This document shows positions 28,923-44,612 of a stretch of 64,000 nt of DNA, one piece after another (the stretch's first letter is position 1; every line of letters starts with the position of its first letter). The notes under the pieces were generated by a model that was not told the origin of the DNA, did no database searches, and saw only the letters and a list, made by a program, of their open reading frames with translations. The stretch covers positions 256,001-320,000 of the forward strand of contig CBDCFW010000003.1 of the NCBI GenBank assembly GCA_965216465.1, in the 5' to 3' direction. The position numbers and the translations under genes are program-made. The DNA comes from Bacteroidia bacterium (GTDB lineage: Bacteria > Bacteroidota > Bacteroidia > NS11-12g > UBA9320).

Positions 28923-28950
28923 TGTGCCTATAATTTATAGTATGTTCCTA
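28923..28950 (+). other. dif-like hybrid site (attL of element A)
   Basis: TGTGCCTATAA-TTTATA-GTATGTTCCTA; 11-6-11 layout, degenerate XerD arm. Confidence 0.8.
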
Positions 28951-29008
28951 GTCTTTATAAACCTCTGAATATGAAAACTTTAGGTTAATTCTCGAAAGAG
29001 TAGGCCTG

Positions 29009-30202
29009 TTGATAAAAAAAGAAACTTTACTTGATCATACATACCTTGAAGAGAACACTTTAAAAGTCGCATCAATCGACAGTTTAAAGTTGAGAATCCC
29101 TTTCGAAGAGGTAAAGTTAATAAAAACTGACTTAGACGACAATTGGAAATATCTAAACGACTCCACCGGAGAGATTGACGAGAAGGAATATTTAAAACGA
29201 GCTTACTGGTCAAGAGCCAAAGGAATAGCCACTAAATATGCAGTAGAACACCAAACAATAGAAGGTGGCCACATCAGAAAATACTTGGTAATCCTGGTAA
29301 GTTCTAAAGTTCTCAAAGAACTTTATTTCTATGGCATCAGCAAGAAAACAATCTTCCATCTTTTAAAGGAGATCAATAATCAAAATGTTGTAAATCTTGA
29401 AATGTATCAGCTCCTTCAGGCTGAATGCGTAGATATTGATTTCAAAGTAGATTATGAAATGACAATCCATGAGTTTGAAGGATTAATTGAATTGTCTAAA
29501 CACATGACCATCCCAAAGCAACGCCTTAAAACAGGATATCAAGTTTTCTTGGGAAAAGGTAATAAAGGTATTGCTTGGGGAACACGTCAAACACAATCTC
29601 CAAAAACAAATCCATTCTGGAAACACTACCACAAAGGATTAGAGCTAAAAGAAAAATCCTATGAATTCACTGACGAATACCTAACAGACCAGGTATTTGA
29701 AAACAGATGCCGGACCGAGTTTACCATCAAAAACCGCCAACACTTAAACGCAGTATTCGGAAGTCCGCAAAGTGATTTAAACTATTTGATCAATCTTCCT
29801 CAAGATAAGCTGTTTGCAGCCTTAAATATGTGCATCGATGCACACTTATATCGTCCTGACGGATACAAACCTATTGAAGAACGGACCTATAAAAACCCTG
29901 CTGACACCATCATAAGCAATTTAATCCAGGTAGCAATCATGTCCAAGTTTTCTGAAACACACATCATAGAAATAGCCTTAAATGGAATAACGGACAAACA
30001 TCGAAGAACCAGGCAGAAGAAAAGAGTGCGATTCTTGATCAGGCAACTGGTACATCAGCATCCATCCACACAAAATCAATTGGCCAAGAATAAAGCGGGC
30101 CACGAGTTATATAAATGGCTAACAGACGAAGGTAAGGATAACAGAAGTGTCTCAACGGAGTTAACCCAACAATTACTTTTCTATAAAACGATGTATGACT
30201 AG
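29009..30202 (+). CDS. Rolling-circle replication initiator (Rep_trans / phage gene II-X-like)
   Basis: IDSLKL, DIDFKVD, HYHKGLE, CRTEFTIK resemble the D.D...D / Y.K..E / R.E pattern; homolog of 37350-38600; TTG start. Confidence 0.7.
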   Translation: MIKKETLLDHTYLEENTLKVASIDSLKLRIPFEEVKLIKTDLDDNWKYLNDSTGEIDEKEYLKRAYWSRAKGIATKYAVEHQTIEGGHIRKYLVILVSSKVLKELYFYGISKKTIFHLLKEINNQNVVNLEMYQLLQAECVDIDFKVDYEMTIHEFEGLIELSKHMTIPKQRLKTGYQVFLGKGNKGIAWGTRQTQSPKTNPFWKHYHKGLELKEKSYEFTDEYLTDQVFENRCRTEFTIKNRQHLNAVFGSPQSDLNYLINLPQDKLFAALNMCIDAHLYRPDGYKPIEERTYKNPADTIISNLIQVAIMSKFSETHIIEIALNGITDKHRRTRQKKRVRFLIRQLVHQHPSTQNQLAKNKAGHELYKWLTDEGKDNRSVSTELTQQLLFYKTMYD

Positions 30203-30359
30203 ACTTGAAAAACTAAAGGCCAAAAGAGCAACTCTCCAGGACTACATAAAAAAGACTGGAAGCACTCAATTTGCAGAAAGGTTATCCAACCTAAATAAGG
30301 CAATATTTTGTCTTGAATGGCTTGAAAACAACCAAAAAATAATTGATGAGCTGATTTAG
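30195..30359 (+). CDS. 54-aa helical protein (absent from ORF track)
   Basis: MTRLEKLKAKRATLQDY...LSNLNKAIFCLEWLE overlaps rep stop; resembles 39586-39783. Confidence 0.6.
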   Translation: MTRLEKLKAKRATLQDYIKKTGSTQFAERLSNLNKAIFCLEWLENNQKIIDELI

Positions 30360-30454
30360 GCTCCAGGGTCATTTCTAGATAATGACCCTAAGTTGCGTTG
30401 GACCGCAACCACGATGCAAAGCGAGTGGGCGTCCAACCACTTAGGGCTAAATCA
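30352..30454. other. Multi-hairpin non-coding region, candidate replication origin of element A
   Basis: Inverted repeats AGGGTCATT/AATGACCCT, CCCTAAGT/ACTTAGGG, GTTGGAC/GTCCAAC, TGATTTAG/CTAAATCA. Confidence 0.55.
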
Positions 30455-30585
30455 TCCTATACATCTATAATAAACTCAATACTAGTGTGTTACGCTGAAA
30501 TATTACTCAAACCTTCAAAAAAGCCTTGAAGTACATATATGTAATAGCAGATTACATAAGAATTTATTAATAACACATAGCAATT

Positions 30586-31317
30586 ATGGCCGAAATTTTA
30601 AATACCACGGGAGTGGTATCAGCAAAAGCAAAAATCGCAACTTCAGTTATAAAACTGGGTATGACGATTGAAGACCAAACTGCAGGTTTGGCAAAGGCAG
30701 ACTTGGAAAACATTCTAGTAAAAATCATTGATGCAGGAAATGGTTCAAATCCTGTAATCCACAGCGTGGATTTATGGACCTTACTGGAAGAAAGTGCTGA
30801 GACTGTAGGAGTGTTCATGTTGGCAGCTAACAAATTGACTGGAAGTGTTGACCTTGTAGTGGATGAAATGCCATTTAACGCAAGAGAAATTAACTTCCTT
30901 GAAGTTCAATTATCAGGATTGGTTGCAACGCAAACCGTAAAACTTTATGCTATCGATGGATGGGGTAATGATGGAGCATTAAGAAACTTACAGCTCAAAT
31001 CAATTGTAGGAAGTGCAATGAATGACATTAGTTTAATGGGAGTTAAACGCATGATTATTCCAATTTCTAAGATTGACTCTGTAACACTTGATTATCCAGC
31101 TTTAGGCAATCTAAAAGCAAAATCAGTAACCTACACAGAAGAGGAGCTTGAAATCTTACAGCTTGAAGACCCTGGTATTGTTTACCTAAAAGGTAAATCA
31201 GCAACACCACAGTATCTGGTAGAAAACAATTGGATTCTAGCCTGTAACAATGCAGTTAGAGCCAAAGTACAACCTAAAGCTGCTGCGGGAGACTTCAACA
31301 TCCTACTGGACAAGTAA
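30586..31317 (+). CDS. Putative major capsid protein (beta-rich, jelly-roll candidate)
   Basis: 243 aa, first gene of structural operon; similar to 40432-41169 (VDLWTLLE/IDLYTLFE, GSVDL/GMVDL, IDSVTLDY/VDYVEITY). Confidence 0.55.
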   Translation: MAEILNTTGVVSAKAKIATSVIKLGMTIEDQTAGLAKADLENILVKIIDAGNGSNPVIHSVDLWTLLEESAETVGVFMLAANKLTGSVDLVVDEMPFNAREINFLEVQLSGLVATQTVKLYAIDGWGNDGALRNLQLKSIVGSAMNDISLMGVKRMIIPISKIDSVTLDYPALGNLKAKSVTYTEEELEILQLEDPGIVYLKGKSATPQYLVENNWILACNNAVRAKVQPKAAAGDFNILLDK

Positions 31318-31412
31318 TGGCACTCAAATTCATTTACAAAACCAAAGCACAGCGGCGTAAGATTTTACGCAACATTGCTTTAAGCAAGAAGAAAGGAAAT
31401 GGGAAAGGGTAG
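31317..31412 (+). CDS. 31-aa highly basic peptide (absent from ORF track)
   Basis: MALKFIYKTKAQRRKILRNIALSKKKGNGKG; TAATG coupling to capsid-candidate stop. Confidence 0.5.
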   Translation: MALKFIYKTKAQRRKILRNIALSKKKGNGKG

Positions 31413-31803
31413 ATTAAAAAAATGGTTCAAGGAAAAAGGAGCTAAGAAGATTTTAGGTGGCCTGGAGAAATTCGGGACACTTATTCCTGGAGTGGGTGGA
31501 ATTGTTTCTACTGGAGCTGCTCAATTAAAAGAGCGCTTAGGCGACAAGGAAGCACAAAAAGCAATGGCAGCAACGTACGCAGGTGCGGTTGCTGAATCAG
31601 TGGACAACGCTCAAGGAATAGTATCTAGACAAGGCTCATTTGAAGAACAAGTTGAGATGGAAGCAAAAAAGCAGAGAATCAAAAGAATTTTAGGACAAGT
31701 AGGTATGGTGTTAGCGGGGCTAACTGTCGTACTTATTCCAATTATTCTAATTGTTAGATCACGCAAACGAAAAGGTTTTGCACGTAAAAAAAGAAGAAGA
31801 TAA
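31399..31803 (+). CDS. Basic protein with C-terminal TM and poly-basic tail
   Basis: Same architecture and slot as 41259-41666. Confidence 0.75.
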   Translation: MGKGRLKKWFKEKGAKKILGGLEKFGTLIPGVGGIVSTGAAQLKERLGDKEAQKAMAATYAGAVAESVDNAQGIVSRQGSFEEQVEMEAKKQRIKRILGQVGMVLAGLTVVLIPIILIVRSRKRKGFARKKRRR

Positions 31804-31805
31804 TC

Positions 31806-32066
31806 ATGTTGAAATTAGACGGAAAAAACAACGGAACACTGTGGCTTGAAGAGAAAGACCGCAAGGTGTTCAAAGGAGACAGAAAAGGAGAAACTTACCA
31901 GTGCTTTGAAGGCACAATCGACACTGGAGGCGGTAAAATGATTACAATAAAAATGTATTCAAACACCGATCCAGTAGATAAAGACGGTAAGACATTACTG
32001 CCTTTAAAGGTTTCCAAGTGGAAAGGTAATCCAAGCCGCAGAAAGACTACTAGAAAAAGCTGGTAA
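31806..32066 (+). CDS. Small beta-rich basic protein (possible ssDNA-binding)
   Basis: Operon-coupled; slot equivalent to 41669-42043. Confidence 0.6.
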   Translation: MLKLDGKNNGTLWLEEKDRKVFKGDRKGETYQCFEGTIDTGGGKMITIKMYSNTDPVDKDGKTLLPLKVSKWKGNPSRRKTTRKSW

Positions 32067-32257
32067 TGTTAAAGTGGCTAAAGACAGGATTTGGTTGGCT
32101 GAAAACAGCCAACCAATTCTACCGAAAGGTTAAGACCTCATTCAAAATGATTGAATGGGTTGGAGACGTTTTGGAATTTGCACAGAAAAGGTATGCTGAA
32201 ATCTTTGAAATAGAAGACGACAGCGAAGTAGAACAGGAAAATCAGACCAATGAGTAA
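32066..32257 (+). CDS. Amphipathic helical protein with acidic tail
   Basis: Similar to 42052-42276 (KW...EW.GDV..FA vs KW...DW.NGV..YA). Confidence 0.7.
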   Translation: MLKWLKTGFGWLKTANQFYRKVKTSFKMIEWVGDVLEFAQKRYAEIFEIEDDSEVEQENQTNE

Positions 32258-32906
32258 TGAAAGCGAAAAATATAGCCATCATTGTAGTGTCAATTGTCCT
32301 CATTGTGGGGGGCTTCTTACTATACAAACGGCGCAAAAAAAAACGTTAGACGACCATCGTGAAAGTAGGCTAAAGTTAGCAGGTAAGGTGATTCTAAAAT
32401 GGGAGGGGGGATATGTCAATGACCCCGACGATAGAGGAGGAGCAACCAACAAAGGTGTAACTTATGCTACTTATCAAAATCTAGCACATAGTGTTTTAAA
32501 GGTATATCCAACGAAAAAGCATTTTGAAAGTCTTTCAGACAATGAAGTGCTGAAGATTATCGCCTGGTACTATGATAAGGTAAAAGGTGATCACTTAAAA
32601 AGTGGAGCTGTTGCAGTAGGAATAACAGATTATTATTGGGGAAGTGGATTGTATGCCATCAAACGCATCCAATCAGCTTTAAATATCCATTACTCAAGAA
32701 ACTTATCAGTTGATGGCGTAGTGGGAGCAAAAACTGTCCAGGCTATCAATTCGGTTCCTGCTAAACATATGCTATCAATCTTAAAGGAAGTACGAGCACA
32801 ACACTATGCAGCGATTGTAAGACACGATGCAAGTCAAGGTAAATTCATAAACGGTTGGAACAATCGCAATTATGATGTCTTTAACTCTTTAATTGAATAT
32901 GTATGA
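32250..32906 (+). CDS. Endolysin, glycoside hydrolase family 108 with peptidoglycan-binding domain
   Basis: EGGYVNDPDDRGGATNKGVT, VDGVVGAKT, KFINGWNNR. Confidence 0.9.
   Translation: MSNESEKYSHHCSVNCPHCGGLLTIQTAQKKTLDDHRESRLKLAGKVILKWEGGYVNDPDDRGGATNKGVTYATYQNLAHSVLKVYPTKKHFESLSDNEVLKIIAWYYDKVKGDHLKSGAVAVGITDYYWGSGLYAIKRIQSALNIHYSRNLSVDGVVGAKTVQAINSVPAKHMLSILKEVRAQHYAAIVRHDASQGKFINGWNNRNYDVFNSLIEYV
32257..32349 (+). CDS. 30-aa single-TM peptide overlapping lysin gene (absent from ORF track)
   Basis: MKAKNIAIIVVSIVLIVGGFLLYKRRKKKR; TAATG-coupled; counterpart of 42269-42457. Confidence 0.65.
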   Translation: MKAKNIAIIVVSIVLIVGGFLLYKRRKKKR

Positions 32907-33307
32907 TCAATGAAATAGATATCGAAAAAGAAGTAATCCAAACGACTACTTTTAGGCAAAAACTAAATCCAATGTATTGGTTCAGACGCTTTGTACAACC
33001 TGCCTTCAGGCAAATTTCTTTCTATTCAGGAATTAACCTGGTATGGAAGATTACAGACGTGTTTATCAAAGTGCCAAAATTGATAAACGAAGAGGATGCA
33101 GATATGGTAAGCAGTAAAACAAGAAAACAACAATTGTTGAGTATTGTCTTACACATCTTATTTATAGCACTACCTCTTTTACTGATACTTAAAAAGAAAT
33201 GGTATGTCTTACCAGTCGTACCAATTCTTATGGCGTTTAATATCCTGGTACACTTACGAGGAATATACCTAGCAATCATGGTATATCGAAGTCATGCACG
33301 GAATTAA
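32903..33307 (+). CDS. Membrane protein
   Basis: Two C-terminal hydrophobic segments; ATGA overlap with lysin. Confidence 0.65.
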   Translation: MINEIDIEKEVIQTTTFRQKLNPMYWFRRFVQPAFRQISFYSGINLVWKITDVFIKVPKLINEEDADMVSSKTRKQQLLSIVLHILFIALPLLLILKKKWYVLPVVPILMAFNILVHLRGIYLAIMVYRSHARN

Positions 33308-33539
33308 ACCTACACTCATAGGGTTTGCTTCACTTGCAGGGGTTAATGTTGCTGAATTAACAGCAGAGAACCTAGAAAGCATTGAAGCAATCCTTATGAG
33401 CTTAGTTAAATGGATAATAGCAGGATTAACCATTTACACCCAAATCAAATCAATCAGAAATGAAAAAGCTAATAACCGGGTTGCTAATGATAGTAACCGT
33501 GCTAGTGGCTCCAGGAGCACTAGCAGAACAAACAAGTGA
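33294..33539 (+). CDS. Small membrane protein (holin-like)
   Basis: Two hydrophobic segments, basic tail; resembles 42834-43031. Confidence 0.6.
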   Translation: MHGIKPTLIGFASLAGVNVAELTAENLESIEAILMSLVKWIIAGLTIYTQIKSIRNEKANNRVANDSNRASGSRSTSRTNK

Positions 33540-33930
33540 CAACCTAAATTTTAACCTAAAAACAGAAATACAAATGTGTAACGAACATGTAAACTACGAG
33601 TTTGAATTAAGCGATACCAGACAACCATTGTTCTGCGATTCAAAACATCTTCTAGTAGGTGTTATAAATCACTTTTCAGATTTCACCAACTATAAGATCA
33701 ATACTGACATTGATCCTGGAACTGGTGCACCATGGGTAATAGACAGTGGCTTAAATGATGCAGAGATACTAATTAACTCGCTAAAATCAGGCGGCACTAA
33801 AATACCAATAGAACTGATAAAGAATATTCCTTTAGATCAGTGGCATGAAAGAGGAACAAGGGATATCAATGCGCCTATTGCCACTGGTAACACCCGTAGG
33901 TATGTTGTAATCAAGTGTAGACAGGCTTAG
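33460..33930 (+). CDS. Putative minor virion protein (penton/spike candidate)
   Basis: From MCNEH (33574) aligns with 43012-43380: LNDAEILIN/LNEHEIFIN, GTRDI/GTRDV. Confidence 0.6.
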   Translation: MKKLITGLLMIVTVLVAPGALAEQTSDNLNFNLKTEIQMCNEHVNYEFELSDTRQPLFCDSKHLLVGVINHFSDFTNYKINTDIDPGTGAPWVIDSGLNDAEILINSLKSGGTKIPIELIKNIPLDQWHERGTRDINAPIATGNTRRYVVIKCRQA

Positions 33931-33932
33931 TC

Positions 33933-34118
33933 ATGGGATTAAGTAAAGAAAAATCCAAGCACTTCAACAAGAAAGTCAAAGAATTTTCTAAAACAGCTTG
34001 GGAAACATTCAACACCACTCACTTTGATTCACTAGCTGAATATCAAAATGAGAAGTTCTTAGTTGAGCAATCAATTAGAGAATTTCAACGCTCAGAACTT
34101 GATAAAGTAAAGGAGTAA
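33933..34118 (+). CDS. Small helical protein
   Basis: AWETF..THFDSLAE...VEQSI resembles AWAEF..TDFDTVQE...VEQQI of 38735-38965. Confidence 0.65.
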   Translation: MGLSKEKSKHFNKKVKEFSKTAWETFNTTHFDSLAEYQNEKFLVEQSIREFQRSELDKVKE

Positions 34119-34146
34119 ACATTGTAGCAGATCTGCTCAACATGCT

Positions 34147-34174
34147 AAAAGCCACCTTTTGCAGGTGGCTTTTT
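34147..34174 (+). terminator. Terminator of element A structural operon
   Basis: AAAAGCCACCT-tttgc-AGGTGGCTTTTT. Confidence 0.85.
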
Positions 34175-34354: not shown

Positions 34355-34642
34355 ATGTCTAATAAAATAAGAGTAACTAATCATAAGGTCCTTGTGCTTT
34401 ATAGTTTTGATGAAGTAAATAAACTTTATACTCTTTCAACACTTGAAAGAGGAGGACCTCTTGTTGTGGATTCGGATTTCGAAACAGCTAAGAAAAAAAT
34501 GGCTGAGCAACTAATTGTTGTAAGCTCTCTTGGTAAATTAATGTTCTATGATAAATATAGGACTAATGAAGATAGGAAGACATCGTTGGCTAATAGTTTA
34601 GGGAAGGTTATAGAGGAGACGTATTTGGAACTTGTAGCATAG
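34355..34642 (+). CDS. Cargo protein, HicB-N-terminus-like
   Basis: beta-beta-helix pattern LVVDSDFETAKKKMAEQL; weak resemblance. Confidence 0.4.
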   Translation: MSNKIRVTNHKVLVLYSFDEVNKLYTLSTLERGGPLVVDSDFETAKKKMAEQLIVVSSLGKLMFYDKYRTNEDRKTSLANSLGKVIEETYLELVA

Positions 34643-35152
34643 ATGTTAATTACCTATCGAGCACTAAGAGAACTTTTATATCAGAAATATGCAGAGAAGT
34701 CTCTGCAAGGAGTTATAGACGACTTTTCAGAATATTTTGATGAATCCCTCGCAACTGCAGAGCAGATTGAGGATTATGAGTATCTGTCAACATTCATTGA
34801 GAATAGAAAGGATATAGAAGAGAAATATCGTTTTTTCTGGAACTACAAGCAATGTTCGGTGCCAACGATGGTGGAGAAGCATGACTATTACACGGTTGAT
34901 GCATTATCAGTAATTGCTTATGATCATCCCGATATCGACGTAAGACATTTTGAACAGCTCATTGAAGAGATTGCAACAAGAGACAAGCACGATTTGGAGC
35001 AGTGGTTAGGTAGATTTAGAAGTTTGTACAAGGCTAGAGTAAATATTGGTAACGCGATACGAAGCTACAAATTAGGGTACATCGGAAGAAATGATCTTTG
35101 CTACTGCGGGAGTGGTAAGAAATACAAAAAGTGCCACGGGTTCAATAATTAA
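34643..35152 (+). CDS. SEC-C motif protein (cargo)
   Basis: C-terminal GRNDLCYCGSGKKYKKCHG. Confidence 0.85.
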   Translation: MLITYRALRELLYQKYAEKSLQGVIDDFSEYFDESLATAEQIEDYEYLSTFIENRKDIEEKYRFFWNYKQCSVPTMVEKHDYYTVDALSVIAYDHPDIDVRHFEQLIEEIATRDKHDLEQWLGRFRSLYKARVNIGNAIRSYKLGYIGRNDLCYCGSGKKYKKCHGFNN

Positions 35153-35155
35153 AAC

Positions 35156-35296
35156 GATATCAAATCACTTTGTCCTGGAGCTGCTCGAGCTGAACAAATG
35201 ATATCAAATCCGTTTCCGGCGTCCAGGATCTCAGGGTAAATATGATATCAAATAACTTATCTGCAGCAGATCTGCAGCTGACCAAATGATATCAAA
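35156..35296. repeat. 44-bp-period GATATC array, copy 2
   Basis: GATATCAAA at 35156, 35200, 35244, 35288. Confidence 0.9.
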
Positions 35297-35384
35297 AGAA
35301 ATAACTATAGGTTTTGCTCCAATGTCTATATTTGAATGACATATTAAATTTGTTACGTAACATTAGGGATTGATGTGATCAAAT

Positions 35385-35412
35385 AAAAAGCCACCTGTAA
35401 AAGGTGGCTTTT
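35385..35412 (-). terminator. Terminator, inverted near-copy of 34147-34174
   Basis: AAAAAGCCACCTGTAAAAGGTGGCTTTT; reverse complement differs by one base from the 34147 hairpin. Confidence 0.75.
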
Positions 35413-35725
35413 CTGTTTTTAGATTAACTAAATCCATGCGAACATGGACAAAACCTTTAATGATCAAAAATAAAAGCCGTCTCCTCTGGAAACGGCAATT
35501 AATAAGGTTAGTTAGGTACTATTGCTAAATATAAACACGAAGATAACCTAAATGGTAACAAAACCTCCTGAATAATAGAAATGTATAGGAACTACTGAAT
35601 TAATTAGGTATACTTGATAGTCCTTAACTTATTTTACTACTGGTTATCTATTAATCAAAGTTGAGGTATTAACCCTAGGCCATCCCGAGTGGGGTTTTGG
35701 GATGGCCTTTTTTGTTAATTAGAAA

Positions 35726-35965
35726 TCACTCAATCTTCTCAAGCTCCTTTAAATGATAAAAGAAGTTCTTAGTCTTGTCCTTGACATCTCTAAGTTGAAT
35801 TTCAAGTGATGAATTCTCATCGGTCAAAGACTTAATCCTATCACACATGGGAATGTAGGAGCGAAGCAATAATGCAAAAATTTCTGAATTGGTTTTAATG
35901 TAGGTCTTAGCTTTAATAGCCTCTAACTGTTTAGTCTGTTGATCTGTTAATCTTGATACTAGCAT
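35726..35965 (-). CDS. Ribbon-helix-helix-like DNA-binding protein with coiled coil
   Basis: MLVSRLTDQQ...IKTNSEIFALLLRSY; clear homolog of 39132-39368; start moved to ATG 35965 on that basis. Confidence 0.7.
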   Translation of the reverse strand: MLVSRLTDQQTKQLEAIKAKTYIKTNSEIFALLLRSYIPMCDRIKSLTDENSSLEIQLRDVKDKTKNFFYHLKELEKIE

Positions 35966-36168
35966 AAATAAAATTTTAACATGGTTAAACATTTTCGAGT
36001 AGACTCTCGATCTCTCGAAATCATAGGCATCCAAAGGCGTAAGTGAAAAGCAGTTGTCAATATAAATGAAGGGCAGTAGGGTATAGGCCAGTGTTTAAGC
36101 ATTGACAACAATGTTCACGGGCCAATTTTGCACTCTGATTATGAGAAAAGAATAGGTATCTTTGGAGT

Positions 36169-36423
36169 GTGAGCAATAAAGAAAAGTTATCAGGTAAAGA
36201 GTTGACTATGTATAAGCAGATAGAAACAAACTATGAATATAATGGTAAAACCTTCAAAAATGATTATGTACACCAGATGAGCATTATAGGATATAAACGA
36301 ATAGAAATACCTGGTGTAGAGTTTATTGGTGTTGGTGGTCAGAATTATTTAGAAATCGAGAGGACATACAGAGATATGTTAGTCATGTTCTGCCAAGACC
36401 GAGGAATAACTGAGCTTGATTAA
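36169..36423 (+). CDS. Hypothetical protein
   Basis: 84-aa ORF, GTG start. Confidence 0.5.
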   Translation: MSNKEKLSGKELTMYKQIETNYEYNGKTFKNDYVHQMSIIGYKRIEIPGVEFIGVGGQNYLEIERTYRDMLVMFCQDRGITELD

Positions 36424-36800
36424 TAAGGCAATTTAACACGTTTCAATTTCTTTGGCTTATCACCAATAGGGTTTGGCACAAACAATTGCTTAACATTCTC
36501 AAACACCTCAAAATGATGCAATAATTGCTCTTCTAAAGTTTCTATTTGCTTCTGAAGTGACATAATAGTGTCGAAATCTTCCATCGATCTACGCTGTAAT
36601 TTCATGTGCCGAATCAACATTCTTTCAACAATGTCATGTAATCCATTTGCATCATGATGGAAATATTTGAACTCTTTATAAGCTGCCTTAGCCTCATCAG
36701 AAAGCAGCGTAAATATTAGGGGTTTACCACATTCTTCACATTTCATAGACAGCAAAAAACTAATCAGGATTTTGAATATTTTGTATATAAAAAGATGCAA
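36420..36800 (-). CDS. Coiled-coil protein with N-terminal CxxC
   Basis: MKCEECG (likely start 36746), then helices; slot equivalent to 43810-44172. Confidence 0.55.
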   Translation of the reverse strand: MHLFIYKIFKILISFLLSMKCEECGKPLIFTLLSDEAKAAYKEFKYFHHDANGLHDIVERMLIRHMKLQRRSMEDFDTIMSLQKQIETLEEQLLHHFEVFENVKQLFVPNPIGDKPKKLKRVKLPY

Positions 36801-36871
36801 GCTGTTGAAAACGTGTGAATTATCGACGAATGATAAAACTAATATTTGAGTTCGAAATCAAATTAGTTATC

Positions 36872-37021
36872 ATGGTATTAATACTTAATCAACGAGAAGC
36901 TCGTATGCTTAAACGTCTCATACAAGGATATGAAAGACGAACTCCTGCAAAACGTCAGAAGCGTAAAATCACTGAAGGATTAAAATTAAAACTTAATGAT
37001 AAAAAGAAAGCCGCTGCATAA
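36872..37021 (+). CDS. Small basic protein next to attR of element A
   Basis: MVLILNQREARMLKRLIQGY...; followed by terminator; slot equivalent to 44253-44444. Confidence 0.55.
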   Translation: MVLILNQREARMLKRLIQGYERRTPAKRQKRKITEGLKLKLNDKKKAAA

Positions 37022-37041
37022 AACTATGCGAGCGGCTTTTT
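37007..37041. terminator. Bidirectional terminator
   Basis: AAAGCCGCTGCATA-aaac-TATGCgAGCGGCTTTTT. Confidence 0.8.
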
Positions 37042-37214
37042 AATTTCTTAAGCGGTACTTAATCAAATTTAGGTTCGAAATCAAATTTTATCATGTTGAC
37101 CGCTTAGATGTATAACTTCTAAAGTTATTCACTTTCAAATATAAAAGCTAAACAAATGTACGTGAATGGATTAGCCACGAATGTTAAAACGTTGTTAACA
37201 AAAGAGTTATTATT

Positions 37215-37242
37215 TGTGCCTATAATTTATATTCCGCTAACC
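37215..37242 (+). other. dif-like hybrid site (junction of A and B)
   Basis: TGTGCCTATAA-TTTATA-TTCCGCTAACC; left arm and spacer identical to the 28923 site. Confidence 0.8.
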
Positions 37243-38734: not shown

Positions 38735-38965
38735 ATGTCAAAAGAAGATTTCAAAACAAAAACAAAGACAATGATTGAGAATTTCAATACTGCGTCAAAC
38801 GATGCTTGGGCGGAGTTTGAAGCTCGTACAGACTTCGATACGGTTCAAGAAAGAGAAGATGCAAGGCTACAAGTTGAGCAACAAATTAAAATCGACCATA
38901 AAAAGCTAAAAGAGGATATCAAAGCTGAAAAGGAGCTTTACAAGGCTGAAGCAAAGGCAGAATAA
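38735..38965 (+). CDS. Small helical protein
   Basis: Similar to 33933-34118. Confidence 0.65.
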   Translation: MSKEDFKTKTKTMIENFNTASNDAWAEFEARTDFDTVQEREDARLQVEQQIKIDHKKLKEDIKAEKELYKAEAKAE

Positions 38966-38999
38966 GAGACTTATTTGTAATTCATGTTTGTTTAAAAGT

Positions 39000-39029
39000 A
39001 AAAGGCAGTCCGTAAATGGGCTGCCTTTT
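39000..39029. terminator. Intrinsic terminator
   Basis: AAAAGGCAGTCC-gtaaat-GGGCTGCCTTTT. Confidence 0.85.
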
Positions 39030-39039
39030 CTGTTTAAAC

Positions 39040-39136
39040 GATATCAAAAAGTGAGTTCAGATCCTGGAAAAAACACTTGAAATGATATCAAATACTTTCT
39101 CCAGGAAAGATCTGCAGCTGATTAAATGATATCAAA
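39040..39136. repeat. 44-bp-period GATATC array, copy 3
   Basis: GATATCAAA at 39040, 39084, 39128; AGATCTGCAGCTGA at 39108. Confidence 0.9.
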
Positions 39137-39368
39137 TATCCATCATCTTCTTTAAATGGTAGGTAAAATCCTTTACGTTGTTTTTAATGGAATTGTTCTG
39201 TATTGATAAAGATGAATTTTCTTCTACCAAGTCTTTAATTCTAGATTGACTAGGTAAATAAGCACGTAAGCAAAGGGCAATAACATCTGAGTTGGTTTTA
39301 ATACCTGTATGCTCCTTAATGAGTTCAATTTGTTGTTTCTGTTCGTCTGTTAATCTTGATATAAGCAT
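39132..39368 (-). CDS. Ribbon-helix-helix-like DNA-binding protein with coiled coil
   Basis: MLISRLTDEQ...IKTNSDVIALCLRAY; homolog of 35726-35965. Confidence 0.7.
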   Translation of the reverse strand: MLISRLTDEQKQQIELIKEHTGIKTNSDVIALCLRAYLPSQSRIKDLVEENSSLSIQNNSIKNNVKDFTYHLKKMMDI

Positions 39369-39375
39369 GATATTA

Positions 39376-39579
39376 TTAATTATTAGGTGGTGTTATATAT
39401 CCAATACCGTTTTGAAAAAAGTGTTTTGCTGTACAAACAACATAGGGCTTTTTGTTAGGGTGCTTCTCGCTGTATCGGTTGCGAATAGTGCGTGTAAAAA
39501 TGAAGAGTTTTGGCTTTTGTGGTTGTGATGCTAAGAAAGTAGCAGCCTCGCTGTACGTTTCAAATTCAAATTGTGTCAT
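39376..39579 (-). CDS. Small hypothetical protein
   Basis: Tightly packed in minus-strand three-gene cluster. Confidence 0.55.
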   Translation of the reverse strand: MTQFEFETYSEAATFLASQPQKPKLFIFTRTIRNRYSEKHPNKKPYVVCTAKHFFQNGIGYITPPNN

Positions 39580-39585
39580 AATGAT

Positions 39586-39783
39586 TTATTTAATTTTTGC
39601 GGCTGTGAAAGATTTGAGGTATTCTAGGTTGTCAATAGCTTGGTTTAAGCTTGCTACTGAAAGGTTAAGGTAAATGGAAGAGGTGTATTCACGTCTTAAC
39701 GGTGCTTGTTCGGCATACTCGCGAATCAAGTCTCTTTTCATTTTAAGTGTGATTAGTGTGTCGTTGATTAAGTCGATTGTCAT
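39586..39783 (-). CDS. Small helical protein
   Basis: LKMKRDLIREY...LNQAIDNLEYLK resembles 30195-30359. Confidence 0.6.
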   Translation of the reverse strand: MTIDLINDTLITLKMKRDLIREYAEQAPLRREYTSSIYLNLSVASLNQAIDNLEYLKSFTAAKIK

Positions 39784-39924
39784 GTTTCAATTATTTAAAA
39801 AGTTATACTTCAGGCGTAAGCAATTGCAGACCTGCTTCGCTCCGCCAATATTTTTTTTCGGAAAAACCGAAATATGAAACAAACACAAGCAAAAAGGCTT
39901 TCATAGAACTATAAAAGAGGGGGA

Positions 39925-40301: not shown

Positions 40302-40431
40302 AATCTCGGTCAATTTTTCATCATGATAATCAGCAACTTACCGGTTTTTGGGTTTTTTAAATTTTCATAACCCGATTTGCTGCCCTCTCTTTGTATTCAC
40401 AAAACGAAGTAAAAGAGTTAAAATTTAGAAT

Positions 40432-41169: not shown

Positions 41170-41258
41170 GAAATTCATTTATTTATTGGTTTAGGGTTCA
41201 GGAAGCGGGCAGTATACGGAGATAGTTAGCTGCCCGCAATTCCGAAAATAAAAAGCAG

Positions 41259-41666
41259 ATGGTGAGAGAAAAAAAGAGAAAAGGACTGTTTAACGGTCGA
41301 ATAAAAAAAGCATTGGGAAGCCAATTCAAAAGAAAGGTTGGCGGTACTAAGCTAGGTAATGCGGTAAGGGGTTTTGTACGAAACAAAACAGGCGGTTTGC
41401 TTGGCAACGGCTTATTGATGCTAAAAGAGAATGAAACAAAAGCAGAGACAGATGCAAAAGCAAGAGAAGTTCTTACCGATACTGCGGCGGCTGCGACTGA
41501 GAAATTTGAGAGTTCTCAGAGAAAAGCTCTTGAAGATGTTGAAAGAAAGGCAACGATGGAAAGACTCAAAAAAATAGGCTTTACGGTTGTACTTCCTTTA
41601 TTAGTCGTGGCGGGTGTAGTGGTTTACATATTCAAAAACAAAAAAAAGTCTAAAAGACGTAGATAA
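41259..41666 (+). CDS. Basic protein with C-terminal TM and poly-basic tail
   Basis: Counterpart of 31399-31803. Confidence 0.75.
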   Translation: MVREKKRKGLFNGRIKKALGSQFKRKVGGTKLGNAVRGFVRNKTGGLLGNGLLMLKENETKAETDAKAREVLTDTAAAATEKFESSQRKALEDVERKATMERLKKIGFTVVLPLLVVAGVVVYIFKNKKKSKRRR

Positions 41667-41668
41667 TT

Positions 41669-42043
41669 ATGGCAGGAAATAGCAAGAAATCAAATAACAA
41701 GCACAGCAAAAAAAGCGGGTGCAAAGTCATAACGCCGTACGATGGTGGAGATGGAAGTCTTTTCATTAACGGTTGGAAAGTTGAGAAAGGTGTACTATGG
41801 AGTATCACTGTAAATCAAGCAAAGAAAGATGGCAAGTATATGCCTGTTTCAGAAAGTAATTCGGGTAAAATGTGGATGAATGTGATGGTTGTTGCAAAAG
41901 CACCGTTACAAGAGAACAGATATGTTTACGGCTTGTGTAACTTAGAAAACAATAAGGTGTATATCAAAGAGTGGAATTGGATAATGAATCCAAAAGGTGG
42001 TAAAGGTGGTTACTGCGGAAAACACATTTCTAACGATTATTAA
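41669..42043 (+). CDS. Beta-rich basic protein (possible ssDNA-binding)
   Basis: Operon-coupled; aromatic/basic. Confidence 0.6.
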   Translation: MAGNSKKSNNKHSKKSGCKVITPYDGGDGSLFINGWKVEKGVLWSITVNQAKKDGKYMPVSESNSGKMWMNVMVVAKAPLQENRYVYGLCNLENNKVYIKEWNWIMNPKGGKGGYCGKHISNDY

Positions 42044-42051
42044 AAACGGCT

Positions 42052-42276
42052 ATGAAATGGGTTAAATCAGTATCAGACTTTTTCGATAAGGTAGTCAAGT
42101 ATGGAAAAAAGCTAAATACGATTGTAAAGGTTTTTGACTGGTTGAATGGCGTTATTCAGTACGCTAAAACTACGTGGGATGAAAAGTTTAATGAATCTAT
42201 CCGAGAAGTGATTGAGGATATAAAAGAAGATATCGCAGAAGAGGTAACAGAAAAAACAGAAACAGCAAATGGTTAA
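42052..42276 (+). CDS. Amphipathic helical protein with acidic tail
   Basis: Similar to 32066-32257. Confidence 0.7.
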   Translation: MKWVKSVSDFFDKVVKYGKKLNTIVKVFDWLNGVIQYAKTTWDEKFNESIREVIEDIKEDIAEEVTEKTETANG

Positions 42277-42457
42277 TAGAAGAAATACAAGAGGGAAATC
42301 AAACGGTAAAAAGTGGGTTTTATGGGTAATAGTTGGAGTTGTCCTCATTGTAGCACCGTTTTTCATCTTCAAGAAGTTGAGAACGAAAGCAAAAGAGGCA
42401 ATCAAGAAAGTAGCAGCGAAGTTTTCAAAAAAAAAGGCAACAGAAGCAGTAGCCTAA
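42269..42457 (+). CDS. Single-TM basic peptide overlapping lysin gene
   Basis: WVLWVIVGVVLIVAPFFIF TM; ends after A9 run. Confidence 0.7.
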   Translation: MVNRRNTRGKSNGKKWVLWVIVGVVLIVAPFFIFKKLRTKAKEAIKKVAAKFSKKKATEAVA

Positions 42458-42837
42458 CAAAGAATTTCACGCTTAAAGAATTTGCTTGCAAATGTGGTGC
42501 GGCTGTTCCTGACAAGTATTACAACAACGTCAAAACACTAGCAGAAAATTTACAAGTCCTTAGAGACCATTTTAACGGTGCTAGACGAATAAAAGTAAAC
42601 TCAGGATATAGAACACCTGACTATAACAAAAGGGTAGGGGGTTCTCCAAAATCACAACATTTACTTGCAAAAGCTGCGGATATCGAAATTGACGGTTACA
42701 CGACAAAAGAAGTAGCAGAGATTATTGAAATGCTAATACAAGAGGGCAAAATGAAGCAGGGCGGTATTGGTATTTATAACACTTTTGTTCACTACGATAT
42801 CAGAGGTAAGCGGGCTAGATGGGATTTGAGAAAATGA
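42313..42837 (+). CDS. Endolysin, peptidase M15 family
   Basis: NFTLKEFACKCG, SGYR, SQHLLAKAADI, FVHYDIRG. Confidence 0.9.
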   Translation: MGFMGNSWSCPHCSTVFHLQEVENESKRGNQESSSEVFKKKGNRSSSLTKNFTLKEFACKCGAAVPDKYYNNVKTLAENLQVLRDHFNGARRIKVNSGYRTPDYNKRVGGSPKSQHLLAKAADIEIDGYTTKEVAEIIEMLIQEGKMKQGGIGIYNTFVHYDIRGKRARWDLRK

Positions 42838-43031
42838 GTTATACAAGAGATATGATAGTCGGAAGTGTTGGAGCGGGTTCCATTGAATTGGTAGACCAAA
42901 TCGCGGCACATCCGACTACTTTTAGCATGATACTCCAAGCAATTATTGCTCTTGGTACTATTGCTAAAATAGGTAACAATTGGTTGAAAGAACGTAAAAA
43001 GAAAAAAGAAGATGTGCGGCGAAGTAAGTAA
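42834..43031 (+). CDS. Small membrane protein (holin-like)
   Basis: ATGA overlap with lysin stop; resembles 33294-33539. Confidence 0.6.
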   Translation: MSYTRDMIVGSVGAGSIELVDQIAAHPTTFSMILQAIIALGTIAKIGNNWLKERKKKKEDVRRSK

Positions 43032-43380
43032 CGGTAATTTTGAGATATACGACTCAATTGCTAACGTGTTGGAAATTCCATTTAATCACATTATCTGTGC
43101 AGGATTGTCTAACGGTCAACAAATTGGTGGTTTGCAAAACATCGATTCTGACCCTGAAGTAATATCAAGCGTTGGCGGTCTAAATGAACATGAGATATTC
43201 ATTAATAAAATGGTGGGTTATCCTCAAAGTGGAGATACACCCGACTTCTCAGGTTTATTAAGCAAAATGCCATTGCACGCTTATCAGCCAAAAGGCACTA
43301 GAGACGTTACAAATATTAACTTAATGAATTCGGCTTGGAATGGTAAATTCTTGGTATGGGTTTGTAAAAATGATAACTAA
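43012..43380 (+). CDS. Putative minor virion protein (penton/spike candidate)
   Basis: Similar to 33574-33930. Confidence 0.6.
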   Translation: MCGEVSNGNFEIYDSIANVLEIPFNHIICAGLSNGQQIGGLQNIDSDPEVISSVGGLNEHEIFINKMVGYPQSGDTPDFSGLLSKMPLHAYQPKGTRDVTNINLMNSAWNGKFLVWVCKNDN

Positions 43381-43389
43381 AAAATTACT

Positions 43390-43815
43390 ATGGTTGGAAA
43401 AATAAAACAAGGTGTACAGATGGTAAGTAAGGTTAATCCAATGTATTTAATTGGCGGTTTATTACTATTTGTGTTTGTCTTCTTAGGCAAAAGAATAAGA
43501 GAAAGATTCAATACAGCAAGAACCGTTAACGAGTGGTTTGGGACAAAGAATTTGAAAGAGGGTAGCGACGGCGAAAATATCTCGCTAAGTGCTATTGCAT
43601 ACGAAATTTATGATGCGTTTTACAATAACGATTATTTAGGATTGACAGAGGATGAAGCTGCGGCAATAGCAGCCGTTCAAAAGGTGCATCCAAGAGATAT
43701 GAAGCAGCTCGCAAAGGAGTATGCTAAAATAGGGGGTCGAAATAAAGTGTTAATGCACGATTTGAATAAATACTTGTCTTCTGCTCAAAAATCAGCCATT
43801 AAAGATTGGTTATAA
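43390..43815 (+). CDS. TM protein with annexin-like repeat
   Basis: TM, then IAYEIYDAF...LGLTEDEAAAIAAV...QLAKEY...LMHDLNKYLS. Confidence 0.5.
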   Translation: MVGKIKQGVQMVSKVNPMYLIGGLLLFVFVFLGKRIRERFNTARTVNEWFGTKNLKEGSDGENISLSAIAYEIYDAFYNNDYLGLTEDEAAAIAAVQKVHPRDMKQLAKEYAKIGGRNKVLMHDLNKYLSSAQKSAIKDWL

Positions 43816-44172
43816 TGTTCTTTGACGTTGTGAGTTTGGCTCTTGATTTAACACTTGGCGAGTTAGTGCATCAGGTTCTAACAGGTTGAGCAACAACTTA
43901 ACAAGTCGTTGTTTAAATTGGTGTTCAAAATTGGAAGTTTCAGAAAGTTGTCTTTGCAATTCTTCGATATGAGACTCCAATTTATCAACATCCTTATAGT
44001 GGTTCATGTTTTTATTTTGAACTTCAATATAGCGGTCAATTAGGTGTCTAAATGCGAGTGTTGTATCATAGCCGTGCAAGTAGCGAAATTGCTCAACTAC
44101 ACGATTTTGATGAGGTTCAAGTCCATGTATTTCAAATTTTTTAGATAGTGTGTATTTCCTTTTCTTAGTCAT
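43810..44172 (-). CDS. Putative DNA-binding coiled-coil protein
   Basis: Basic N-terminus, helix TTLAFRHLIDRY, coiled coil. Confidence 0.6.
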   Translation of the reverse strand: MTKKRKYTLSKKFEIHGLEPHQNRVVEQFRYLHGYDTTLAFRHLIDRYIEVQNKNMNHYKDVDKLESHIEELQRQLSETSNFEHQFKQRLVKLLLNLLEPDALTRQVLNQEPNSQRQRTL

Positions 44173-44252
44173 TTATTGTGGATAAGTAGTCACGGCAAAG
44201 AAATGAAAAACTTATAAGATTTGAAGTAGCAAAACAATTAAAATTTAAGTGA

Positions 44253-44444
44253 ATGACTATATCGAAAAATAATGTCTCGCTGTGCATTTCATATCAAGCA
44301 GCTAAGGAATTAAGAAGAGATTTACAATTTGCCAAATCAAGGCGAAAGTTTCCAAGTCGTTATGCTGATAGCAATTTGGAGAAAGTTAATAAGAGTATTA
44401 ACCGAGCTGAAAATAAAAAGGCTGCTCTAAAGAGAACAGCCTAA
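44253..44444 (+). CDS. Small basic protein next to attR of element B
   Basis: 63 aa, basic; slot equivalent to 36872-37021. Confidence 0.55.
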   Translation: MTISKNNVSLCISYQAAKELRRDLQFAKSRRKFPSRYADSNLEKVNKSINRAENKKAALKRTA

Positions 44445-44584
44445 ATATTTTATTGGAGCATTAAGCAAATGTTAGCAAAACAATTTAATAGCTCCAAAAG
44501 ACAAAGTTAGCGTTTAACCGCTTAATTGTTTAACAAATGTATTTCGGTGTATCATATAAGCAAAATGTTGATTACTAACAAATG

Positions 44585-44612
44585 TTAGCCTATAATTTAT
44601 ATTATGTTAACC
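44585..44612 (+). other. dif: Chromosomal dif site (attR of element B)
   Basis: TTAGCCTATAA-TTTATA-TTATGTTAACC versus E. coli GGTGCGCATAA-TGTATA-TTATGTTAAAT. Confidence 0.85.

Follow-up and report, generated by a model that had tools for sequence, protein, structure and literature searches.

The described system nearest to the locus treated here is the phage phiCjT23, which is reported to be temperate and lipid-containing, and whose circular single-stranded DNA (ssDNA) genome measures 7642 nt and encodes a Rep of the Rep_trans type (ORF3) and gp5 as the major capsid protein (MCP) (PMC9719478). The same work (Kejzar et al. 2022) describes 57 putative Flavobacterium prophages of 6021-8407 bp, in which Rep is followed by the MCP and a 28-nt dif motif stands at both ends, and proposes that integration is mediated by XerC/XerD; particle assembly from such prophages is said there to await verification. 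The word 'tandem' is not used in the main text, and the supplements might include tandem cases or hosts other than Flavobacterium. The present analysis concerns a stretch of 64,000 nt (the window) from a Bacteroidia bacterium (GenBank assembly GCA_965216465.1, contig CBDCFW010000003.1), designated G000:C3:256001-320000, where G000 is the label of this genome of 3,231,698 bp. Three dif-like sites in the window delimit two adjacent units, A (28923-37214) and B (37215-44584), which with a probability of roughly 85% represent two distantly related temperate phages of the phiCjT23/Obscuriviridae type that entered via XerCD at dif.

Obscuriviridae (Omtje, phi12:2, phi12a:1) was ratified by the ICTV in 2025 with no realm assigned (PMC12451628), and phi18:4, chloroform-tested for a membrane, has been placed in this family (PMC11946311). 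Its isolates have circular ssDNA genomes of 6.5 kb. FLiP of the Finnlakeviridae is likewise an ssDNA, membrane-containing, double jelly-roll phage of Bacteroidota, described with an MCP of 310 aa, a genome of 9.2 kb and a separate penton protein. A 2026 paper on FLiP-2 considers such sequences to be possibly prevalent prophages in Bacteroidota, and uses neither 'dif' nor 'tandem' (PMC13269007). In Vibrio, heterologous tandem arrays of Xer-exploiting inoviruses and double-stranded DNA (dsDNA) double jelly-roll prophages have been reported at dif (PMC12715192).

Based on sequence and structural models, each of the two units is predicted to encode a Rep_trans-type initiator, a double jelly-roll MCP of about 240 aa, small basic or membrane proteins, a lysin and a regulator on the reverse strand. 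The phages of the group to which they would belong are small, tailless and probably membrane-containing, while the ssDNA genome, the internal membrane, the dependence on Xer, the order of entry and the present activity of the units are features that we infer. The original prediction for this DNA had proposed integrase-free rolling-circle elements of the broad FLiP/phiCjT23 type stacked at dif, and the capsid fold, the fold and motifs of Rep and the empty sites in relatives all agree with it.

Capsid, replication and accessory genes of the two units

The AlphaFold2 model of the unit A capsid candidate (capA) is all-beta, with a predicted local distance difference test (pLDDT) score of 94.4 and a predicted template modelling (pTM) score of 0.89, and displays a double jelly-roll, as expected from the double beta-sandwich that had been forecast for this protein. 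In a Foldseek search against the PDB, the best match was the phiCjT23 capsid protein (7zzz_A, 239 aa) with an E-value of 7e-14, template modelling (TM) scores of 0.82/0.84, a root-mean-square deviation of 2.8 Å and 16% identity, followed by the FLiP MCP (5oac_A, E 1.8e-7, TM score 0.60/0.49) and, further down, by P3 of PR772/PRD1, the STIV MCP, P2 of PM2 and Vp54 of PBCV-1. Double jelly-roll capsid proteins were also retrieved from BFVD.

At the sequence level, a word-indexed search with capA returned two relatives only, and an exhaustive profile search combining capA, its unit B counterpart capB and these two relatives yielded, at E <= 1e-3, 94 representatives of protein clusters, of which 32 reach <= 1e-10; almost all are 230-270 aa long and match over their full length. 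The resulting alignment of 92 sequences comprises capA, capB and P0002 together with 89 of the 94 representatives, P0022, P0057, P0088, P0090 and P0097 having been excluded as fragments or for odd lengths; 29 of these 92 members match phrog_20547 'virion structural protein', with a best E-value of 5e-23. The member P0061 matches gp4, a structural protein verified by mass spectrometry, in 11 Cellulophaga phage records (phi18:4, phi48:1, phi12:2, phi12a:1, Omtje_1-5) at 28-31% identity and E-values of 2e-15 to 2e-12. In a small local database, capB itself matched phi18:4 gp4 (26% identity, E 2e-6) and phiCjT23 gp05 (23.6% over 229 aa, E 4e-4), two proteins which are 36% identical to each other. 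The capsid profile had no meaningful match among PDB sequences (best E 1), and tblastn of 50,697 phage records with capB, RepB and the transmembrane-basic protein of unit B (tmB) gave no match, in the case of tmB not even at E 10; the family was first joined to the cultured phages only by way of its profile and the intermediate member P0061. Judged by sequence and model, the protein belongs to the capsid family of phiCjT23 and the Obscuriviridae.

This family is mostly uncultured, and contigs of 5.6-8.4 kb carry several of its members, P0008, P0009, P0010, P0013 and P0061 among them. In a quick maximum-likelihood tree of 98 proteins, with support from the Shimodaira-Hasegawa-like approximate likelihood-ratio test only, capA and its two close relatives share a long stem (support 100) and capB pairs with P0008; the cultured phages stand apart, phiCjT23, two prophage relatives and phi18:4 forming a separate small group (support 93), with deep nodes that lack resolution. 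About 77 of the 98 rows lie on the side of units A and B, and none of these is cultured. Patterns derived from A1, capB, P0009 and P0036 confirmed no relative among IMG/VR viral contigs and recovered no free circular genome, by a method that reaches only close relatives.

The replication proteins RepA and RepB are 30% identical over 282 aa (E 1e-30), and an index of 5.8 billion proteins holds six homologues, two being RepA and RepB themselves. With the RepA model (pLDDT 76.4, pTM 0.76), Foldseek returned three matches at E <= 1e-3, namely RepDE (4cwe, 4cwc) and Geobacillus RepSTK1 (4cij), with probabilities of 0.99-1.00, and VIA-align gave Z scores of 8.3, 8.0 and 7.9 over 200, 187 and 180 residues for the Rep_trans entries, the next entry being TBP with 5.1. 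In an alignment, five motifs line up with those of the Rep_trans proteins of phiCjT23, phi18:4 and the prophage of genome G051 (IDSLKL/IDYLII; D.DFK.D/RLD.A.D; G.q.g.R.T; K.YHKgLE/R.YNKtLe; R.E.TIKN/WRFEYQLN). The Y.K motif, which we take to hold the catalytic tyrosine of Rep_trans proteins, reads KHYHK in RepA and KMYHK in RepB. From the modelled fold and these motifs we conclude that Rep is probably a divergent initiator with a Rep_trans fold, one that its sequence does not place in PF02486.

The two units follow the same plan. Their 8292 and 7370 bp share a gene order, as had been noted from the sequence together with the rep gene after each of the first two sites, and the large Rep open reading frames (ORFs) at these places, the capsid proteins and the minor proteins form homologous pairs (capA/capB 25% identity, E 1e-11; minA/minB 31%, E 4e-8; Table 1). 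Weak matches link the transmembrane-basic proteins, the amphipathic proteins and the 61- and 76-aa proteins of A and B. The order of Rep, small ORF, MCP, transmembrane-basic protein, further small proteins and lysin is that of phi18:4 and phiCjT23. Among the virion-type proteins of unit B (41259..42457), phrog_20088 is matched at 5e-7, and tmB and the beta-rich protein betaB match phi18:4 gp5 and phiCjT23 gp07, respectively, at E 2e-4 in the small local database; the corresponding proteins of unit A (31399..32257) are positional equivalents of those matching phrog_20088, phi18:4 gp5 and phiCjT23 gp07, and all of them have homologues in the prophage of genome G014. Several small proteins of both units have one or two predicted transmembrane helices. 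The lysin classes differ, with GH108 and PG_binding_3 in unit A versus Peptidase_M15_3 in unit B. Within the units, the sole PADLOC match is the C-terminal zinc motif of the 169-aa SEC-C protein.

The candidate regulators on the reverse strand (102 and 78 aa) depart from this distance: identity between them reaches 55%, with 71% over 92 nt at the DNA level, compared with 25-30% for the structural and Rep genes, which suggests at the sequence level that a regulatory, perhaps immunity, module was recently shared or exchanged between two distant co-resident phages. Close to these conserved genes lie elements of 52-55 nt bounded by GATATCAA, often with a GATCTGCAGCTGA core, whose ends can pair as an 8-bp stem. 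The five copies listed in Table 1 are the only ones in the 3.2-Mb genome, and phiCjT23, phi18:4 and the related loci have none. The element may act as origin, as operator or as packaging signal.

A scan of 31 ORFs against Pfam and PHROGs revealed no integrase, terminase, tail, Zot/pI or microvirus F family, in line with the earlier reading of the sequence; no Walker A motif occurs in the six frames of 28923-44612, and the units hold no packaging ATPase family. These results separate the units from several established groups. Microvirus Pfam and PHROG families are absent and the capsid is a double rather than an F-type single jelly-roll, as opposed to Microviridae; Zot/pI, filament coat families and Walker A are absent, as opposed to Inoviridae such as CTX; and the FtsK/HerA-type ATPase family typified by PM2 P9 is absent, together with Walker A in six frames, as opposed to Corticoviridae.

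The capsid also matches PM2 P2 (2vvf_A, E 7.6e-6), and genome type is not readable from sequence, so that a small dsDNA phage with this capsid fold, of the PM2/Corticoviridae kind or of the 'dif-type DJR' (double jelly-roll) kind of Vibrio, has to be weighed, the more so as PM2-like dsDNA prophages that use XerCD are described in tandem dif arrays of Vibrio (PMC12715192). The closest structure by a wide margin, however, is the capsid of the ssDNA phage phiCjT23 (TM score 0.82 versus 0.57 for PM2), the capsid family and gene order are shared with phiCjT23 and phi18:4, both ssDNA phages by experiment, and the units of 7.4-8.3 kb fall inside the 6.0-8.4 kb range given for phiCjT23-like prophages. 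Furthermore, dsDNA phages with a double jelly-roll capsid normally encode a packaging ATPase, and neither such a gene nor a Walker A motif in any frame is present here. We consider a dsDNA identity highly unlikely.

The dif locus and its neighbouring DNA

The three direct 28-bp sites and their spacings of 8292 bp (A to B) and 7370 bp (B to C) are all present as originally described. Their common 14-mer GCCTATAATTTATA occurs three times in the window, always on the + strand, versus 0 in each of 100 shuffles, and these three copies at the dif locus are the only ones in the 3,231,698 bp of the genome; across the whole genome, no other 28-mer lies within <=6 mismatches of site A, B or C. The consensus XerD arm TTATGTTAACC is confined to the third site, the arms GTATGTTCCTA and TTCCGCTAACC of sites A and B being degenerate, which upholds another part of the original prediction. 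A 55-aa ORF spanning site B (37156-37323, +) is most likely no gene, the frame being open by chance.

Searched with its 23-nt core at up to 2 mismatches, site C was found in 21 of 41 genomes including G000, with exactly one copy per matching genome; it is present in 16 of the 24 other same-genus genomes, those without it being mostly incomplete assemblies, and in 4 of 16 genomes of a neighbouring family. A reversed control pattern gave one match in the 41 genomes. The core adjoins a TPR protein and gyrA in 9 of 10 fetched neighbourhoods, and gyrA lies just right of site C in the window, whose host is a Bacteroidota with proteins sorted by the type IX secretion system (T9SS). As a single-copy sequence conserved across the genus beside TPR-gyrA, site C is by sequence the functional host dif. 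Between dif and the TPR gene, two 32-nt direct repeats (44807-44916, 84% identical, 78 nt apart) and an inverted repeat (44865-44924) were also noticed.

Host recombinases that could act here are encoded elsewhere in the genome, which has 4 matches to the tyrosine-recombinase family PF00589, all on other contigs. XerD (C6:765509-766411) scores 342.9 bits, above the NCBIfam cut-off of 329.6, and a XerC-like protein (C4:129247-130143) has XerC as its best match at 274 bits, below the cut-off of 335. Integration targeted at a tRNA gene was excluded, as no tRNA or Rfam family was found in 20000-47000.

In same-genus relatives, dif lies directly between TPR/gyrA and a homologue of the small membrane-protein gene at 22089-22376, 70-140 bp from the start of that gene. 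The site is empty in 6 of 7 same-genus loci (L013, L014, L017, L018 and L019 from tblastx rows, L016 from the flank gene), so that the empty site proposed as a check in the original prediction was indeed seen; the seventh locus, in G014, carries an array of its own at dif. Compared with the empty sites, G000 has about 22.2 kb of extra DNA (22377-44584) rather than 15.7 kb. The predicted insertion therefore ends at dif as proposed, while its left edge, by synteny, lies at about 22.4 kb and not at 28.9 kb.

The additional DNA (22377-28922) encodes three related secreted or T9SS-tail proteins with T9SS sorting domains on the - strand (23068-25566) and, on the + strand (26096-28871), four orphan ORFs of transmembrane or coiled-coil character, which have no Pfam or PADLOC match. 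None of its proteins is similar to those of unit A or B, phiCjT23 or phi18:4, and no viral genes were found in it. Two of the T9SS-tail proteins (23068-23799 and 23886-24635) are paralogous, with DNA 80% identical over 131 nt, beside a secreted-looking protein of 308 aa. Two candidates for a fourth dif site were rejected: GGTTATAATTTATA at 25970, a 2-mismatch half-site overlapping a terminator-like hairpin, was not convincing, and AGCCTAATTTTGTACCGTTAAC near 22420 was too degenerate to call. The block is nevertheless tied to the array, because the DNA bordering site A on its left looks like the right ends of the dif-integrated G014 elements (TATCAA...) and because it holds one copy of the GATATCAA-bounded element otherwise found in units A and B. 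It is probably older material integrated by Xer at dif, outside both prophages, and possibly decayed cargo.

Related prophages, proposed route of integration and read data

A survey of 401 genomes sampled across the class (200 genera) with the capsid profile gave matches in 6 genomes including G000, in 4 genera. Dif-like direct repeats 6.5-8.1 kb apart flank 4 of the 5 other capsid loci, and the fifth runs off its contig (Table 1). Since the Rep types in these prophages differ, the replication module appears from sequence to be exchangeable within one capsid family, among Rep_trans, HUH G2P-type and the divergent Rep_trans clade of RepA and RepB. The relative of unit A in G014 is 62% identical in Rep and 61% in MCP, and stands directly at the dif of that genome. 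A second dif-bounded element adjoins it (9508-16599 of L015, 7091 bp) and encodes the anti-phage pair IetA, an AAA ATPase (PADLOC 2.5e-124), and IetS, a subtilase (1.5e-281), along with a 555-aa orphan; by sequence, this element is a defence island integrated at dif. Because G014 carries this two-element array, stacking at dif recurs in the genus.

That dif also receives non-viral cargo in this genus, such as the IetA/IetS element, and that the 22.4-28.9 kb block of G000 lacks viral genes, are grounds for asking whether units A and B might themselves be non-viral Xer-exploiting islands or integrated rolling-circle plasmids carrying a beta-sandwich protein, the more so as Rep_trans proteins are typical of plasmids. 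We regard this as extremely improbable, as the MCP matches a solved virion protein specifically and from end to end, members of the family are virion proteins verified by mass spectrometry, tmB and betaB match further virion or phage proteins, and in each unit the lysin and small membrane proteins stand in phage order.

The arms of the three sites can be assigned by comparison. Site A would combine the resident XerC arm with the XerD arm of phage A, site B the XerC arm of A with the XerD arm of B, and site C the XerC arm of B with the XerD arm of the host, which returns the same attachment sites (attP) as had been predicted. The assignment is backed by G014, where the junction left of the unit A relative reads GCCCATAA-TTTATA-ATATGTACCTA and ATATGTACCTA is 9/11 identical to the site A arm, unlike the TTATGTTAAC of either host, and by the free genomes of phiCjT23 and phi18:4, which have one CTATAA-TTTATA-GTATG site each, GTATG being common to the site A arm. 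In phi18:4 (L023), a dif-like TTGTACTATAA-TTTATA-GTATGTAAATT was observed at about 5170-5195 on the - strand, between gp10 and gp11. Because its genome carries such a site, phi18:4, studied as a lytic isolate, may by this sequence criterion be able to lysogenise by Xer recombination.

In the route that we propose for units A and B as integrated phages, a double-stranded replicative circle would carry one dif-like attP, TGTGCCTATAA-TTTATA-GTATGTTCCTA in A and TTAGCCTATAA-TTTATA-TTCCGCTAACC in B, and host XerC/XerD would recombine it with the chromosomal dif, leaving on the left a hybrid junction whose XerD arm is degenerate and regenerating a working dif on the right. Because the next element would enter this regenerated dif, A would have entered before B, and the material at 22.4-28.9 kb earlier still; the standard model for integrative mobile elements exploiting Xer (IMEX) likewise has the older element on the left and the newest next to dif. 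The degeneracy of the XerD arm at sites A and B would shield the prophages against deletion by FtsK-driven XerCD, and the identical central regions would still permit Xer-mediated excision.

Read data for the locus come from three runs of one sample, with contigs at depth 2-3 and no RNA run among those listed. Contigs bridge the sites in integrated order (site A by X2 26600-30521 and X1 28652-28969, sites B and C by X1 33340-46500), confirming the integrated tandem arrangement in the likely source of the assembly. The sole alternative joint listed, from 44611 to 45194 (side 27), was rejected, as its short side is the dif sequence itself and it probably derives from another organism.

Several observations weigh against this interpretation. 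Neither PF02486 nor any other Pfam family was matched at E up to 10 by the 4 of 4 Reps of the RepA/RepB clade, the Rep profile had no meaningful match among PDB sequences (best E 0.046, to an unrelated hypothetical protein), and hhalign of this profile against the phi18:4 Rep gave E 0.053 with a probability of 1%; the RepA model was built on just 6 sequences, and its global TM scores in Foldseek are low (0.28-0.41). The rolling-circle Rep of the original prediction accordingly stands on fold and motifs, and finds no support in Pfam or PDB sequence profiles. CapA itself has no PHROG match and is linked to the cultured phages only via the family profile, capB and the fold, and no homologue of the phiCjT23 spike P13 (gp13) was found among unit A and B proteins by BLAST at E 1. 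The orientation of attP is with the genes in units A and B and the G051 prophage, and opposite in phiCjT23, phi18:4 and the G099 prophage. The cumulative guanine-cytosine (GC) skew, predicted to turn near 44.6 kb, has its window maximum at 44-45 kb, and on the contig climbs to about 300 kb and then flattens without falling, a soft turn at dif which is compatible with a terminus and is not sharp. Finally, in the depth 2-3 contigs of the one sample, neither a joint closing a circle (back-joining) nor one marking excision (skipping) appeared at site A, B or C, a result that says nothing either way.

This last result is also what would be seen if the units were of the same type and had become defective or domesticated remnants, kept as cargo at dif with no excision or particles. 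The degenerate XerD arms at sites A and B, the older and clearly decayed material adjoining at 22.4-28.9 kb and the statement that particle assembly from such prophages awaits verification (PMC9719478) point in the same direction. On the other hand, all core genes have open frames as long as is usual in their families (Rep 397/416 aa vs 364-396 aa in relatives, MCP 243/245 vs about 240 aa), coding density is 79% in unit A and 82% in unit B, Rep, MCP, lysin, membrane proteins and regulator are kept in both, and in a hybrid junction a degenerate XerD arm is to be expected and does not signal decay. Such remnants are unlikely, with appreciable weight left to them.

Table 1. Features of the array and its surroundings (window coordinates), with related prophages in other genomes in the last rows
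Feature	Position	Strand	Remarks
Extra non-syntenic block	22377..28922	.	left of site A; - strand T9SS-tail or related proteins, + strand orphan ORFs
GATATCAA-bounded elements	27768-27822 (extra block); 35154-35208, 35242-35296 (unit A); 39038-39092, 39082-39136 (unit B)		
Site A	28923..28950	+	TGTGCCTATAA-TTTATA-GTATGTTCCTA; putative hybrid left junction of unit A, dif-type XerC arm, phage-type degenerate XerD arm GTATGTTCCTA
RepA, 397 aa	29009..30202	+	predicted divergent Rep_trans-type rolling-circle initiator; putative catalytic Tyr in KHYHKGLE
Unit A major capsid protein capA, 243 aa	30586..31317	+	double jelly-roll (AlphaFold2 model)
Unit A transmembrane-basic protein	31399..31803	+	basic, C-terminal transmembrane helix; virion-type by position
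Unit A beta-rich protein	31806..32066	+	basic; virion-type by position
Unit A amphipathic protein	32066..32257	+	acidic; virion-type by position
Unit A lysin	32250..32906	+	Pfam GH108 1.5e-17, PG_binding_3 3.3e-10; phrog_315 endolysin 6e-33
Unit A protein with two transmembrane helices	32903..33307	+	hydropathy scan
Unit A 61-aa protein	within 32903..34118	+	A/B BLAST
Unit A protein with one transmembrane helix	33294..33539	+	hydropathy scan
Unit A minor protein minA, 156 aa	33460..33930	+	N-terminal hydrophobic segment
Unit A accessory/regulatory end	34355..37214	.	95-aa and 169-aa ORFs; 169-aa with SEC-C motif, Pfam 8.6e-10
Unit A candidate regulator, 102 aa	35726..36034	-	55% identical to unit B counterpart
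Unit A 126-aa protein	36420..36800	-	ORF
Site B	37215..37242	+	TGTGCCTATAA-TTTATA-TTCCGCTAACC; junction between units A and B; arms assigned to phage A (XerC) and phage B (XerD, degenerate, TTCCGCTAACC)
RepB, 416 aa	37350..38600	+	same Rep clade and invariant motifs as RepA
Unit B early/regulatory block	38735..39783	.	76-aa ORF (+), two GATATCAA-bounded elements, three reverse-strand ORFs
Unit B candidate regulator, 78 aa	39132..39368	-	55% identical to unit A counterpart
Unit B major capsid protein capB, 245 aa	40432..41169	+	phrog_20547 'virion structural protein' 1.8e-5
Unit B transmembrane-basic protein tmB	41259..41666	+	virion-type
Unit B beta-rich protein betaB	41669..42043	+	virion-type
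Unit B amphipathic protein	42052..42276	+	virion-type
Unit B basic transmembrane peptide	42269..42457	+	hydropathy
Unit B lysin	42313..42837	+	Pfam Peptidase_M15_3 2.5e-20; phrog_894 endolysin 7e-38
Unit B late/end genes	42819..44444	.	includes a 70-aa ORF
Unit B minor protein minB	43012..43380		homologous to minA
Unit B transmembrane protein	43390..43815		hydropathy
Unit B 120-aa ORF	43810..44172	-	ORF
Unit B basic 63-aa ORF	44253..44444		ORF
Site C	44585..44612	+	TTAGCCTATAA-TTTATA-TTATGTTAACC; host dif by sequence, consensus XerD arm TTATGTTAACC; XerC arm assigned to phage B
Prophage of G374 (L031, G374:C1)	repeats 8057 bp apart		at dif beside TPR-gyrA; Rep PF23343 REP_ORF2-G2P (HUH), 10424-11464
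Prophage of G099	repeats 7837 bp apart		Rep 84%, MCP 81% identical to phiCjT23; Rep PF02486
Prophage of G051	repeats 7661 bp apart		Rep PF02486
Prophage of G014 (L015, G014:C8)	repeats 6544 bp apart		unit A relative; part of two-element array
Prophage locus of G072 (L032, G072:C51)	locus off contig edge		Rep PF23343 (HUH), 10560-11609

Comparison with described phages and meaning of the array

Seen as integrated phages, units A and B resemble phiCjT23 (genome ON067806, capsid 7ZZZ) in size class, in having Rep, a small ORF, a double jelly-roll MCP of about 240 aa and small basic or membrane proteins, with betaB about 26% identical to gp07, and in lacking an integrase; with phiCjT23 and its prophages they further share 28-nt dif-like sites at the prophage ends and the CTATAA-TTTATA-GTATG attP. 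They differ from it in an MCP identity of only 16-24%, in Reps that are not detected by PF02486, as those of phiCjT23 and its prophages are, and in their setting in another Bacteroidota genus with two heterologous units stacked. With the Obscuriviridae (phi12:2, phi12a:1, phi18:4, phi48:1, Omtje) they have in common the MCP family (phrog_20547), the match of tmB to gp5 (phrog_20088), the gene order with the lysin in the structural block and, in phi18:4, a genome with one dif-like site. The Obscuriviridae isolates are described as lytic, whereas units A and B are integrated, and they carry a recognisable Rep_trans protein and a glucosaminidase lysin in contrast to GH108 and M15 here. FLiP, the second-best structural match, has no detected sequence similarity to either unit.

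The array also resembles the IMEX described in Vibrio (CTX, VGJ, TLC and the dif-type double jelly-roll prophages of PMC12715192). Such elements encode no recombinase, enter at dif, restore a functional dif on one side and, by successive entry, build heterologous tandem arrays. At the present locus, direct dif-like sites including the host dif, host XerC/XerD candidates and an empty dif in relatives were found, and likewise no element-encoded recombinase. The Vibrio elements nonetheless have an unrelated virion type and another host phylum, and we identified no terminal gene pair of the RstR/XafT type in units A and B. TLC-like IMEX have an attP whose XerD arm is degenerate, as in units A and B. 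The attP of CTX is a folded ssDNA hairpin, and units A and B would instead have one canonical duplex site whose central region is the same as in dif.

The original prediction had presented the units as a candidate new family; taken to mean a new kind of phage, this is not supported, as phiCjT23-like dif-flanked prophages were published in 2022 (PMC9719478) and the capsids belong to the same sequence family. On the published accounts, both the phage type with dif-flanked prophages and tandem dif arrays of double jelly-roll prophages, the latter in Vibrio, were already known. What is new are two deep uncultured capsid lineages, a Rep clade invisible to Pfam, a heterologous array in a non-Flavobacterium Bacteroidota and the other dif cargo adjoining it. 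It is possible that units A and B represent a new taxon at genus or family rank. More broadly, and tentatively, since we hold it to be somewhat doubtful, the units may be the first context-resolved members of the uncultured part of the capsid family, with a Pfam-invisible branch of Rep_trans, and may stand for a new lineage of family rank, or for two, among the temperate ssDNA phages of marine or aquatic Bacteroidota. In this genus dif would then serve as a stacking site where ssDNA phages of different kinds gather together with defence islands (IetAS in G014) and a remnant that lacks Rep. This remnant, which shares the GATATCAA-bounded hairpin element with the phages, could be a satellite.

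The advance is incremental and overturns nothing. Only a handful of ssDNA double jelly-roll phages are in culture (FLiP, phiCjT23 and the Cellulophaga phages), and they bear on the relatedness of ssDNA and dsDNA viruses. The capsid profile (alignment A3) finds prophages of this kind where Pfam and PHROGs fail, and the locus yields exact predicted attP junctions (37214 to 28951 for A, 44584 to 37243 for B) for the polymerase chain reaction or the mining of reads. Taken together, the two units extend the design of Rep, minimal double jelly-roll MCP and dif to another Bacteroidota genus, and indicate heterologous stacking at dif in Bacteroidota, like that of the Xer-exploiting elements in Vibrio.

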